From IMG/VR virus record IMGVR_UViG_2713896798_000016: a stretch of DNA of 28,031 bases. The stretch is one strand, 5' to 3'. Shown piece after piece: positions 15,001-18,000 of the stretch. The stretch's first letter is position 1; every line of letters starts with the position of its first letter. The DNA comes from a virus (lineage: Duplodnaviria; Heunggongvirae; Uroviricota; Caudoviricetes). The position numbers were made by a program.

Positions 15001-18000
15001 AGGCGCAGATATTCCGCCTTCTCCATGGTTTCAGCAGTCGCCGGGGCAGATGAAATCATCACCTGCGTCAGCTGTGAACGTTCATACAAAGCAGACATTC
15101 TGCCTCCTGATAATAAAAAACCCGCACGCGGCGGGTTATGGGTTCTGTTGAAAAAATTACACCGTGACCTGAAACTCCAGGGTTGCACGGTAACAGCGGT
15201 TTTCCGGAATATAGTCCTGCATTTCACTGACGGATCCCGGGGCCAGCAGCATTATGGCTTCACGGGCGTCCTGACGTATCTGACGCGCCTGCGTCACAGT
15301 CCCGGCATAAACGTCTATCTGCACCGACACTGAGGACTCCGCCTGCCCGCCCATCACGTCCGCCGACACCGATGAAATCAGGCTGAAAACCACCCACGGA
15401 AGCGCCACCGACGGCCTGCCATCCAGCAGGGGGACCACATACGGGTACACCTGCCCGCCGGCAAGATGCGCCAGATGAGGATACAAATCCGCCTCCGTCA
15501 TCGTCTCAGTACCTCATCAATGGCCCGGTTCATCCGAGCAATCGCCACCTGTGCCGCCTGTTCACTGCGCACATCAAATGCCGGGCGCACAAACGGGTGC
15601 GGTGGCATATTCACGGTCCCCATTTCCACAAACCGCCAGTAGAAAGCATTGCGCGGGTTATCCGCCTTCATGGTGTTATCGCTGTTACCGGTGTCCGGAT
15701 TAACACCACGGATATGGACACCGGATTCCATACCGCCATCGCGGGAGCGCCGGGAAAGGACCACCACATTGCGGCGCAGTTTTCCCCTGCGCACCGGTGC
15801 CCGTGACACCACTTCTTCTTTCAGCACATTCGCACCCGCACGGGTTGCCTCACGCAGCACCCGGTTATTTTCCGCACCACTCAGAAGCTGCAAATCGCGG
15901 CTGATGTCCTCCAGCCCCGAAAAATCCAGCAGGGTTTCGATCATTTTTCCCCTCCCAGCCGACAGAGAATTTCCAGACGCCCGCCGGTCGCATCCGGCAC
16001 GGGCAGCCCGACAACGTTCAGGATCCGGTCACGCCATGGACCACTCAGCACATGAAGTCGTGACGCTGCCGTGATTTCCCGACCGGACTGACCGCGCACC
16101 CAGATGCGGATTTCCGCCTGCGCCATTTCCGCACCGGACTGCATCCGCTCCCGGCTGCTCCTGCCACGGATATCCGCATGAATTTTCCCGCATGACACCC
16201 ATTCTTCCGTCATTTCTCCGGCAGCATTACGGGTTAACACCGGGTTCAGAACACTTATCATCTGTGTCAGACGACCTGCAGATATTGCCATTCCCCCTCC
16301 TCATAACACCGTCGGACAACGCAAATCGTAAATCAGCACGGAAACAGAAAACGGCAGCTCCCCCTGAAGCAGTTCTTCCCGCTCCGCAAGATCCGGATTC
16401 CGGTACAGCATCCCGGTCAGTCGCATGGCAGCCCCCTTCATCCGGGTTAATGCCTCGCCCGGGATCAGTTCACCGTCCTCACGAATCACCTTATCCCGGC
16501 TGCCCTGAATGTAGGCCAGCAGCACGGCGGTAGCCTGACGAACCTTGTCCATCAGCATGTCATCATCCGCGTCATGGTCGACACGCAGATGTGCCTTGAT
16601 CTCTTCCAGCGTCAGTAATGCCGTCATTTTCCGCCTCCTGCATCCCGCCCACGTTTTGCAGCCAGGGTCCAGCCTGATGAATGAGCTTCTCCGGGTTTAT
16701 CACCGGTCATACTGTTGCAGTGCCACAGCGAGCCCCCCCACGTCACCGTATCGCCGGGGTGGTAGGTTTCACCGGCTCTGAACACACCGCGGTAGAGCAT
16801 CACCGGCAGGGAAAATGTTTTTTCCGTACACTGGCCACTGCTCTGCCGGACCACCACAGAGAACAACCGTTCACCCGTCATGCTGACGTCAATATCCGCC
16901 ACCCCGTCAACCAGGCATTCCCATCCCCGCATCCCGTGCGTTTTTTCATACGCCCGCCAGAGTCCGCCCTGGTGTGTGGCATACGTGCCCCGGGGAAAGG
17001 ATTTTTGATCGTCAATGGCAGGGAGTATTTCCAGTGCAGTGGCATCACGCCCGTCCTGCGGAGCCGGCAGGGCACTCACCGCATCCAGAACAGCCTTCTG
17101 CAGAACATCGGGATCATAGTCACGACCATCACGCGGAACAGGAATATGGCTTACCGCCTCCTTCACCATCTGTTCAAGCATCGGACGCACATCATCCGGG
17201 GTGATACTTTTACCGTCTGCCGGCTGCGGAATATTTGCGACCGCATCATTCACCGCCTTCTGCAGAACATCCGGATCGTAGTCACGACCATCACGCGGAA
17301 CAGGGATATGGCTTACCGCCTCCTTCACCATCTGCTCAAGCATCGGACGCACATCATCCGGGGTGAGACTTTTACCGTCCGCCGGCTGCGGAATATTTGC
17401 GACCGCATCATTCACCGCCTTCTGCAGAACATCCGGATCGTAGTCACGACCATCACGCGGAACAGGAATATGGCTCACTGCCTCTGTCACCATCTGTTCA
17501 AGCATCGGACGCACATCATCCGGGGTGAGACTTTTACCGTCCGCCGGCTGTGGAATATTTGCGACCGCGTCATTCACCGCCTTCTGCAGAACATCGGGAT
17601 CATAGTCACGACCATCACGCGGAACAGGAATATGGCTTACCGCCTCCTTCACCATCTGTTCAAGCATCGGACGCACATCATCGCCCGTCACGCACTTCTG
17701 TAATACCACAGACAGGGAAGCCAGTTTTTCTTCAAACGTTTGTGCCTGCGCGGCTATTTTCCCCTCAAATGTGCGCTGTAAATCCGCCAGCACTGCGGAA
17801 AATTCTTCACCCAGCGCACGGATAATGGACAGTTCACGTTCATTCATTTTTTCAGAATCCCCCTGAACATCGCCTTCACCGCATCATGCTCTGTTTCAGT
17901 GATTGCCTTATTACCGTCAGAGGCAGCGACCGCCTGAGGCACGGAAGCTGTTTTACCGGACGACGCGAACGGATCTTCACGGGCATCACGGCGGGACAAC

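Follow-up and report, generated by a model that had tools for sequence, protein, structure and literature searches.

Proteins of the SPP1 gp7/Mu gpF (MuF) type are present in low copy number, associate with the portal and are in some cases fused to other domains; their genes follow immediately after the portal gene. T4 fibritin (wac), which is encoded beside the neck genes, is an elongated, helical and non-essential neck fibre. Portal proteins themselves, in the structures known so far, carry their C-termini inside the capsid. A further, accessory and low-copy component, the neck passage structure (NPS, collar-whisker) of the lactococcal siphophages TP901-1 and 936 group, is built from an anchor, a helical rod and a C-terminal CBM. 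NPS is reportedly expressed together with the capsid and binds weakly to host cells through its CBM, and attachment to the portal has been proposed (PMC6669499).

Here, we analyzed a window of 28,031 nucleotides (IMG/VR record IMGVR_UViG_2713896798_000016, Caudoviricetes) in which a gene, hereafter gene X, lies between the portal and the head-tail connector genes and encodes a protein with a similar succession of anchor-like helix, rod and CBM-type domain. Our literature search returned nothing specific on gene X, on BP-4795 ORF59 or on the proteomics of these virions. The gene order is portal, gene X, connector.

A distinct gene coupled to the portal and connector genes

The portal-connector region of the window contains the following features:

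17844..19208, minus strand: HK97-family portal gene, 454 aa (TIGR01537, E 4e-105, residues 45-388)
17844..17847, minus strand: ATGA overlap of the portal stop (TGA) and the gene X start (ATG)
16624..17847, minus strand: gene X, an ORF for a 407-aa portal-coupled repeat protein (44.4 kDa, pI 4.9)
16624..16627, minus strand: ATGA overlap of the gene X stop and the head-tail connector start
16301..16627, minus strand: head-tail connector (gp6-like adaptor) gene, 108 aa (TIGR01560, E 2.3e-12)

The first-pass annotation had described gene X as translationally coupled on both sides through 4-nt overlaps, and both ATGA overlaps were indeed found. No Shine-Dalgarno sequence was detected within 10 nt of the gene X start, so that initiation probably proceeds by termination-reinitiation, whereas the connector gene is provided with a GGAGG Shine-Dalgarno sequence 6 nt 5' of its own ATG. 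The portal domain of the 454-aa ORF is complete (positions 2-343 of the 343 of TIGR01537) and ends around residue 388; it is followed by a 66-aa C-terminal tail, the end of which forms a short helix directly ahead of gene X. Within gene X, no match to a portal domain (PF04860 or TIGR01537) was obtained. The prophage contained in the window is defective, its tape-measure gene being interrupted by an IS66 element.

Homologs of gene X form 5,593 clusters at 50% identity, and neither Pfam nor NCBIfam holds a dedicated model for them. Two ORFs joined by the same ATGA overlap were found in Phytobacter, Atlantibacter, Enterobacter, Kosakonia, Buttiauxella, Citrobacter and a MAG labelled Chitinophaga, with portals 64-72% identical to the one of the window; the junction was recovered in 10 distant enterobacterial loci, and the overlap is identical in all of them and in Salmonella phage FSL SP-016. 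The MNERE start of the protein is conserved across enterobacterial genera, and a conserved ATGAATGAACG start is present in other genera. Portal and gene X are likewise neighbours in more distant lineages: they overlap by 14 nt in Pseudomonas syringae, by 11 nt in Variovorax and by 8 and 14 nt in two metagenomic phages, and lie 4 nt apart in the isolated Rhizobium phage RHph_X2_26. A second search for related loci, using the phage 2851 protein as query, returned the same contigs.

This genomic position is shared with the MuF proteins, and gene X is occasionally fused to the portal (see below); however, gene X carries a CBM-type C-terminus and lacks a MuF domain, no Phage_Mu_F (PF04233) match being obtained in gene X or in 96 homologs.

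A single nucleotide separates the split and fused forms

One further element of the portal gene determines whether the two genes are split or fused:

17859..17863, minus strand: G5 run (C5 on the plus strand) close to the 3' end of the portal gene, in its final codons (alignment with phage 2851)

In phage 2851, one extra G (G6 for G5) turns portal and gene X into a single 859-aa ORF. G5 coincided with the split form and G6 with the fused form in 78/78 loci; exact junctions in IMG/VR comprised 95 G5 (split) and 41 G6 (fused) cases, and the fused form accounts for ∼30% of the E. coli-type copies. On a tree built from the flanks, the inferred root state is G5 with at least two fusion origins in E. 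coli, and a separate portal-gene X fusion was encountered in the soil phage P0207. The A6 run immediately preceding the ATGA had been considered as the site of slippage but was discarded, as the indel is located in the G-run 15 nt upstream.

The database labels attached to these loci suggest a different history. An identical E. coli locus is annotated by PGAP/RefSeq as 'phage portal protein, frameshifted' (pseudogene), AP012530 and related Stx-phage records read 'portal protein (pseudogene)', and PHROG 2271 ('portal protein', 859 positions) spans both genes, gene X matching positions 455-859 only. Together with the single ORF of phage 2851 and the defective state of the window's prophage, these labels would make gene X the dead 3' half of a frameshift-broken portal, with the 859-aa protein as the functional state. 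Such a scenario is contradicted by the presence of two ORFs in every out-group genus examined, by the G5 root state, by a dN/dS of 0.23 among split alleles (0.226 for 39 distinct alleles), by the conservation of the gene X start codon and ATGA overlap, and by the complete HK97 portal domain within the 454-aa portal. Moreover, split alleles occur in Sakai Sp10 (ECs_1974/ECs_1975), in the Stx1 phage BP-4795 and in FSL SP-016. Among Sp6, Sp9, Sp10 and Sp12, the Sakai evidence covers Sp10, a prophage that has been scored as morphogenetically intact and for which packaging and transfer to K-12 were observed (PMC2669165). We therefore consider the broken-portal scenario extremely improbable and, for the gene X family, already refuted.

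Taken together, the dN/dS of about 0.23 and the presence in transmissible or isolated phages indicate that the split form is functional, and it is also the ancestral one. The fused state is the derived one; it arose on more than one occasion, and at least one viable phage (2851) tolerates it. Instead of being a fragment of a broken portal, gene X is a structural-module gene in its own right; its treatment as a distinct gene in the first-pass annotation thus agrees with its own ORF, its conserved start and overlap, and the split form found elsewhere. The family goes by 'phage portal protein', 'gp6-like head-tail connector' or 'frameshifted portal pseudogene' in RefSeq and in phage records; the portal labels are wrong, and the names seem to derive from the fusion allele of E. 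coli. Prophages of the Stx-phage type in EHEC would be misjudged by intactness calls in which a 'frameshifted portal' counts as a defect.

Fused alleles show the same dN/dS (0.23) as split ones. Truncated copies of gene X were similarly distributed in exact-pattern scans (fused 6/30, split 9/67, p=0.54); a contrast seen among the best 80 IMG/VR loci (5/29 versus 0/50, p=0.005) was withdrawn in favour of these less biased scans. Since 13-20% of prophage copies carry a truncated gene X, the gene may be dispensable.

Whether both genotypes could yield a mixture of free portal and portal-gene X protein, by programmed -1 frameshifting or G-run slippage, was also considered. With G5, a -1 slip of tRNA-Gly on A-GGG-GG would enter the frame of gene X, where the 12 codons preceding the ATG are free of stops; with G6, the same slip would terminate after 3 codons and release free portal, and the length of the G-run has changed repeatedly in evolution. 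However, no conserved G-run or slippery heptamer is present in other genera (AGAGGATT, ACGGGGGTT, AGAGGGATG), and the frame of gene X relative to the portal is not fixed, being -1 in enterics but +1 in Pseudomonas, Variovorax, the Rhizobium phage and the metagenomic relatives. Programmed -1 frameshift pairs such as lambda gpG/gpGT are expected to share a slippery sequence and one frame relation among relatives, and the gene X relatives share neither. Furthermore, a run of five G is short for efficient ribosomal slippage, and gene X retains its own conserved ATG. Recoding at this site is in our view very unlikely. At the genetic level, a 1-nt change in the G5 run repeatedly joins or separates two structural genes, and nature thereby provides a test of how well a portal copes with 405 residues of cargo at its C-terminus.

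Repeat rod and CBM5/12-like domain

Along the protein, three segments can be distinguished:

17689..17847, minus strand: long N-terminal helix, residues 1-53, a candidate attachment/oligomerisation segment (AF2 helix 3-53, pLDDT about 90)
17035..17682, minus strand: repeat rod, residues 56-271, four 162-nt units comprising eight half-repeats (acidic, pI 4.4)
16627..17034, minus strand: C-terminal beta-domain with CBM5/12-like modules, residues 272-407

A coiled-coil assignment of the N-terminal helix was dropped, as its heptad signal is weak (enrichment 0.44 versus 0.28).

Tandem Repeats Finder reported positions 17093-17682 as 3.6 copies of a 162-nt period with 95% matches (score 1082, far above chance), and in protein register the units correspond to residues 56-109, 110-163, 164-217 and 218-271 (nt 17682-17035). 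The earlier description of four near-identical copies holds for the first three, which are pairwise identical at 154/162 nt, but was slightly generous for the fourth, which matches the others at 126-130/162 overall and is near-identical over its first two thirds only. Two half-repeats per unit, eight in all, were found as first described; each is composed of an amphipathic helix and an [IL]PxPxDG[KR] loop, with which the half-repeat ends, and their spacing alternates between 25 and 29 aa. In AF2 models the rod shows a helix-loop pattern at low confidence (pLDDT 45-70), and its profile resembles that of designed helical-repeat proteins, which, together with CBMs, were the only matches of gene X in a PDB sequence-profile search.

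The expected variation of copy number between strains was borne out, related loci carrying 1 to 7 units. Alleles with an intact C-terminus encode proteins of 245, 299, 353, 405/407, 461, 515 and 569 aa, in steps of 54 aa. Units are 95.7% identical within a locus and 91.8% between loci, and some loci (e.g. L061) contain stretches of 100% identical units. Together with the range of copy numbers, these values indicate that repeat turnover in gene X is rapid.

The non-repetitive C-terminal domain, first given as ∼150 aa, measures 136 aa. It is confidently modelled by AF2 as a CBM5/12 beta-module fold, and W309, Y362, W375 and W393 are nearly invariant (≥90% conserved). The match of gene X itself to PF02839 (20.6 bits, E 4.5e-4, residues 357-379) falls below the 26.2-bit gathering cut-off, while CBM_5_12 was detected in 48/96 homologs at E≤1e-3 (best 3.2e-8). 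Collagen repeats (PF01391) were detected in 9/96 homologs (best E 5.5e-14), in some of which they replace the rod; a Pfam search of the window protein found no such Gly-X-Y repeats. Two further Pfam matches, DUF4244 and TetR_C_35, lie just over threshold, occur in 1/96 members and were set aside as repeat-driven noise; PF28083, precomputed on many matches, proved to be 'QatB (faint)' and was considered spurious.

Structural comparisons placed the C-terminal domain among carbohydrate-binding modules and fibre tips. Top Foldseek matches were the fibre/RBP complexes of Agrobacterium phages 7-7-1 and Milano, and BFVD neighbours included collagen-repeat, ChiC_BD and tail-fibre proteins; a CBM5/12-type domain also caps collagen-like phage fibres. 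Compared to the CBM5/12 modules of chitinases (PF02839; Serratia ChiB, Streptomyces ChiC 2d49, Bacillus ChiA1 1ed7), the beta-fold is related, but gene X has a composite of ∼135 aa with two CBM-like motifs and extra strands, without a catalytic partner and in a virion-module setting. The distal fibre domains (7-7-1 9rkv, Milano 8fqc, gp47 of Pseudomonas phage Pa193, 'collagen triple helix repeat' proteins of uncultured phages) are encoded with tail or baseplate and located at the tail tip, whereas gene X is encoded between portal and connector, and TM-scores to them are low as only a small module aligns.

The likeness to NPS is one of layout. The NPS anchor is a BppU-like beta-sandwich and its rod a trimeric coiled coil, in contrast to the single ∼50-residue helix and the helix/Pro-loop tandem repeats of gene X; its CBM is of BppA, beta-helix or esterase type instead of CBM5/12, and its hosts are Gram-positive. 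PDB sequence and fold searches returned no BppU or NPS match to gene X. Fibritin, too, differs by its continuous trimeric coiled coil and C-terminal foldon and by the lack of a CBM, and no similarity to gene X was found in PDB sequence-profile and fold searches.

Possible location and function in the virion

Based on sequence and structural models, we favour with moderate confidence a gene X product that would be a low-copy, elongated and glycan-binding accessory fibre at the portal vertex, made by coupled translation. The protein would be translated by termination-reinitiation at the portal overlap and would thus be no more abundant than the 12-copy portal; the lack of a Shine-Dalgarno sequence, compared to the GGAGG of the connector gene, likewise points to a low copy number. 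Its N-terminal helix of ∼50 residues may anchor or oligomerise the protein at the portal/neck vertex, followed by an acidic helix-plus-proline-loop rod whose length may change as near-identical 162-bp units slip or recombine unequally. The distal CBM5/12-type domain, with its conserved surface aromatics, is predicted to bind polysaccharide on or around the host cell, which could provide a weak and reversible pre-adsorption. In some E. coli phages, the additional G 15 nt before the overlap joins the protein, in the same frame, to the C-terminus of the portal. Of this picture, translational reinitiation, the position in the virion, the binding of glycans and the biological role are inferred.

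The first-pass annotation had also suggested a head fibre, neck whisker or decoration protein. Of these, a capsid-wide decoration/cementing protein or many-copy head fibre would be in keeping with the position of gene X in the head module, and some decoration proteins reportedly carry glycan- or Ig-type binding domains. The decoration suggestion nevertheless became less likely, as gene X lacks a separate ribosome-binding site and its translation is coupled to that of a 12-copy portal. In addition, it is invariably separated from the capsid gene by the portal and a small ORF, and PDB and BFVD searches gave no match to known decoration folds. A capsid-wide role thus seems very unlikely.

The fused alleles are more difficult to reconcile with an external fibre. 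They are common (41 versus 95 in IMG/VR) and occur in the viable phage 2851, and with portal C-termini lying inside the capsid, an in-frame fusion should place gene X inside as well, which poses a topological problem for an external appendage. The low-confidence rod model and the weak heptad signal of the N-terminal helix also count against the fibre. Alternatively, the product could be a portal-bound internal head protein, the N-terminal helix of which docks on or extends the C-terminal crown of the portal within the capsid. We consider this unlikely, albeit the most serious of the competing explanations, and the same doubt applies to its more detailed version, in which the protein resembles SPP1 gp7/MuF or the P22 portal barrel and either stays in the head or leaves it together with the DNA; once in the periplasm, the CBM5/12 domain could bind GlcNAc-containing peptidoglycan.

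An internal location would agree with the position of gene X directly downstream of the portal in all lineages examined, usually with overlapping stop and start, with a stoichiometry close to that of the portal as implied by coupling, and with the short helix that ends the portal tail just before gene X. It would also agree with the recurrence of fusion, in E. coli and in the unrelated phage P0207, and with fused alleles being no more degraded and no less constrained than split ones. On the other hand, all structural neighbours of the C-terminal domain are extracellular carbohydrate-binding modules or distal fibre domains, the collagen repeats that substitute for the rod in some homologs are a hallmark of external phage fibres, and proteins exposed for interaction with the host typically vary rapidly in length. 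A 1-nt indel suffices for fusion, which should hence be frequent if neutral, yet among the relatives examined outside E. coli fusions are rare (1/150 best cluster representatives confirmed, few of them checked for a portal domain). Finally, an ejected protein could not work while covalently tied to the portal.

A more speculative and rather doubtful proposal is that gene X represents a new class of portal-tethered protein in HK97-like siphophages, in which the helix bundles with the portal tail and the G-run toggles between forms. If true, helix/tail bundling would explain how a single base can fuse the two proteins without killing the phage, and why fusion recurred independently. In that event, the short G-run would switch, through mutation and possibly also during translation, between a free protein and one bound covalently to the portal, and phage populations would contain two kinds of virion, one that has a deployable glycan-binding module and one that lacks it.

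Stx1- and Stx2c-converting long-tailed phages and their relatives possess, encoded beside the portal, a length-variable protein with a CBM tip, and if this product aids adsorption or surface retention, it would bear on the spread of Stx phages. Independently of function, the 162-bp unit, with its 1 to 7 copies, offers a ready length marker for typing. The same repeat is likely to break contigs; among the E. coli database entries for this gene, the majority are contig-end fragments labelled 'partial'.

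A coupled gene between the portal and the connector

The 407-aa ORF described in the first-pass annotation (hereafter X) was recovered at 16624-17847, with the correction that it lies on the minus strand, and the proposed 4-nt overlaps with both neighbours were confirmed as ATGA stop/start overlaps at each end. The surrounding module is organized as follows:

23079-23642, minus, terminase small subunit
21421-23082, minus, terminase large subunit
19420-21357, minus, prohead protease/major capsid fusion
19154-19375, minus, 73-aa ORF without family match, following the protease-capsid fusion gene and overlapping the start of the portal gene
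17844-19208, minus, HK97-type portal, ORF of 454 aa
16624-17847, minus, X, ORF of 407 aa
16301-16627, minus, head-tail connector

Beyond the connector, the minus-strand order continues with genes for head closure, a gp10-like protein, tail completion and an Ig-bearing major tail protein. The slot between capsid and portal likewise holds a small ORF (53-77 aa) in Salmonella, Pseudomonas syringae and Variovorax phages and in a soil metagenome (L097, L107, L108, L099).

Tandem Repeats Finder reported a period of 162 at 17093-17682 (3.6 copies, 95% matches, score 1082), corresponding in protein register to four 54-aa units (residues 56-271), each made of two half-repeats with an amphipathic helix and an [IL]PxPxDG[KR] loop. 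The earlier count of four copies thus holds for the units, but their near-identity holds for units 1-3 (pairwise 154/162 nt identical) and not for unit 4, which departs in its last third; likewise, the non-repetitive C-terminal domain is present, but comprises 136 aa rather than ~150. Recent expansion of the array, as had been proposed, is supported by the higher identity of units inside one locus (95.7%) than among first units of different loci (91.8%), and by perfectly identical units in 9 of 74 loci, with a run of four such units in the related locus L061. The anticipated copy-number variation between strains was equally apparent, as alleles with an intact C-terminus measure 245, 299, 353, 405/407, 461, 515 or 569 aa, i.e. 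one to seven units (five in Stx1 phage BP-4795), making the 162-bp unit usable as a length marker. Most E. coli database entries for this gene (matches P0002-P0120) are 'partial' proteins of 540-660 aa, from contigs ranging from about 1.6 kb upward, mainly 2-3 kb. Short-read assemblies seem to break inside the portal gene, before the repeat array is reached; several near-identical prophage copies per genome are the probable cause.

A single G separates two genes from one annotated portal protein

X contains no portal domain, and its PHROGs match covers positions 455-859 of an 859-position family named "portal protein". The window region is matched by long-tailed Stx1a/Stx2c-converting phages and prophages, with 1,247 of 5,426 complete E. 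coli genomes carrying such a match. In phage 2851, portal and X form a single 859-aa "portal protein" CDS, whereas for an E. coli locus that does not differ from the window region PGAP gives "phage portal protein, frameshifted", and the label in several Japanese records of Stx phages is "portal protein (pseudogene)". When the split and the single-ORF form were aligned, the sole length difference was an extra G in a homopolymer located 15 nt ahead of the ATGA, with five residues in the window (G5, 17859-17863) and six in phage 2851 (G6). Without exception, the 78 E. coli-type IMG/VR loci encode two ORFs with G5 (split) and one with G6 (fused), and exact-pattern scans of the whole of IMG/VR returned 95 G5 versus 41 G6 junctions.

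An independent portal-X fusion of 1,237 aa is encoded by a soil-metagenome phage (P0207; L099/L100, 5001-8714) and runs from the portal through an acidic linker and ~22 half-repeats to the conserved C-terminal domain. Its loop motif is IPxPEPEPLPDI, not IPxPxDGxD, indicating that the motif drifts within a conserved helix-plus-proline-loop plan.

RefSeq entries from Klebsiella, Pantoea, Raoultella, Sodalis, Pseudomonas, Variovorax and Pseudoduganella give stand-alone homologs (~400-470 aa, lacking PF04860; P0276-P0334) the name "phage portal protein" or "phage gp6-like head-tail connector protein", with neither domain present; a few Klebsiella homologs are named 'Carbohydrate binding domain'. 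These names look as if they had been carried over from adjacent genes or from the fusion allele of E. coli. The X gene is therefore already in databases, but is not recognised as a family and is systematically misnamed, an annotation error that bears on prophage-intactness calls in EHEC.

Two coupled genes are the ancestral state

Ten relatives with a readable portal/X junction, from Phytobacter, Atlantibacter, Enterobacter, Kosakonia, Buttiauxella, Citrobacter and a MAG labelled Chitinophaga, served as out-group (portal identity 64-72%, best X segment 45-61%). All 10 encode two ORFs with the identical ATGA overlap, and a conserved G-run was absent from these 10 junctions. Among five wider relatives, portal overlaps X by 14 nt in a Pseudomonas syringae prophage, 11 nt in a Variovorax prophage, and 8 and 14 nt in two metagenomic phages, while a 4-nt gap separates them in the isolated Rhizobium phage RHph_X2_26; the connector lies directly downstream of X in four of the five. 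Since the portal/X frame relation in these five is unlike the enteric one, a conserved programmed frameshift joining the two genes was ruled out.

In a neighbour-joining tree built from 765 flanking nucleotides, the inferred root state was G5 and at least five G5/G6 changes were required. Together with the identical flanks shared by some G5 and G6 loci, this indicates that the G-run toggled repeatedly, although sequencing errors in the homopolymer could account for some of these cases. Outside the repeats, X gave a dN/dS of 0.226 for 39 distinct split alleles versus 0.230 for 11 fused ones. Furthermore, the split form is that of Sakai prophage Sp10 (ECs_1974, 454 aa; ECs_1975, 407 aa), which was scored as morphogenetically intact and shown to be packaged, transferred to K-12 and lysogenised (Asadulghani et al., PMC2669165), as well as of Stx1 phage BP-4795 and Salmonella phage FSL SP-016. 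Taken together, out-groups, tree, selection and viable phages show that, for the X family, the "frameshifted portal pseudogene" reading is wrong. The usual arrangement is two coupled genes, from which the fused E. coli allele is derived.

One late frameshift in X, ending ...TVTWGARCGTATV and costing the last ~28 residues, is shared by loci with G6 (L056, L057, L310) and G5 (L219, L271) and by alleles that differ in unit number (379 and 325 aa). This distribution suggests either inter-allele recombination or another hot spot of mutation, close to the GG run in 'TWGGS'.

Protein family and predicted structure

The X family comprises 5,593 clusters at 50% identity (E<=1e-3), 646 with E<=1e-30, of about 120 to 1,237 aa (mainly 300-500 aa) with a C-terminal conserved domain; no NCBIfam model for it was found. 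AlphaFold2, run with a 96-sequence alignment, predicted a confident helix spanning residues 3-53 (pLDDT about 90), a low-confidence repeat region of helices and loops (45-70) and a beta-domain at residues ~270-400 (96-98); modelled by itself, the C-terminal domain reached 93.2. With a pI of 4.4 the repeat region is acidic, and a weak profile resemblance links it to designed helical-repeat proteins, features that would fit a putative rod of stacked helical hairpins. In nine of the 96 family members, collagen repeats replace the helical ones.

Pfam CBM_5_12 matched 48 of 96 family members, the window protein being sub-threshold, and three Trp and one Tyr of the C-terminal domain are conserved at >=90%. 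Its best Foldseek PDB matches were Agrobacterium phage 7-7-1 tail fibres and the Milano receptor-binding complex, and its neighbours in a viral structure library were mainly "collagen triple helix repeat" phage proteins, ChiC_BD/CBM5-12 and tail-fibre or minor-tail proteins.

Expression and proposed role

No Shine-Dalgarno sequence was found within 10 nt of the X start (CTGAAAAAATG), whereas a suitably spaced GGAGG precedes the connector gene. Ribosomes ending portal translation may thus reinitiate at the overlapping ATG, which would keep X at or below portal level, about a dozen copies per virion, and argues against a capsid-wide form of the decoration protein considered among the initial suggestions. 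X keeps a fixed slot between portal and adaptor, follows an anchor-rod-knob plan, ends in a predicted carbohydrate-binding domain and varies fast in length; on these grounds we propose that it could be an accessory fibre, low in copy number, sited at the portal/neck vertex and binding surface polysaccharide. We give this external fibre about even odds.

All solved portal structures known to us have their C-termini inside the capsid, so a covalent portal-X fusion should place X inside. Yet fused alleles are common, present in a viable phage and as constrained as split ones, and X is truncated no more often in fused (6/30) than in split loci (9/67; p=0.54); an apparent contrast of 5/29 versus 0/50 was dropped because it sampled the best-scoring 80 loci only. 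The fusion may represent a tolerated loss of accessory function, a reading favoured by the rarity of fusions outside E. coli among the relatives examined and by fold neighbours that are all extracellular or fibre-like. The same two points weigh against X being an internal protein seated on the inside of the portal, in the manner of SPP1 gp7/MuF-type proteins or of a P22-like barrel in trans, where fusion would change little; recurrent fusions and universal portal adjacency speak for this arrangement, which we nevertheless consider rather unlikely. The G5/G6 alleles set up a clean experiment on C-terminal cargo of the portal.

For an external fibre, the nearest described analogue is the neck passage structure (NPS) of lactococcal siphophages, with its collar, helical fibres and terminal CBMs; the CBM of one 936-group NPS (phage PhiA.16) binds host cells weakly (PMC6669499). 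X lacks the BppU-like collar domain, coiled-coil rod and BppA-type CBM and is hence not an NPS member, so that at best it may work like one. X would be a variant among CBM-tipped accessory fibres of siphophages, unusual in that a homopolymer fuses it to, or separates it from, the portal. The major tail protein (14382-15227, minus) carries a C-terminal Ig-like domain (Pfam Ig_2/Ig_3/I-set), a candidate for another weak-adhesion module on the same virion.

State of the window prophage

The lysis and early regions of relatives are absent from the window, and its minus-strand tape-measure gene is split in two halves, interrupting the Pfam Phage_HK97_TLTM profile near position 160:

7863-9491 and 11948-13645, minus, halves of the tape-measure gene
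9545-9970 (tnpA), 9967-10317 (tnpB) and 10348-11961 (transposase), plus, IS66-family element within it
23808-26423, minus, second IS66-family element
26766-28031, tyrosine integrase, running off the window

The split renders this prophage defective, whatever its portal/X state. The second element, ISCro1-like by comparison with the related locus L003, borders the small terminase gene on the upstream side of that gene and is followed by the integrase.
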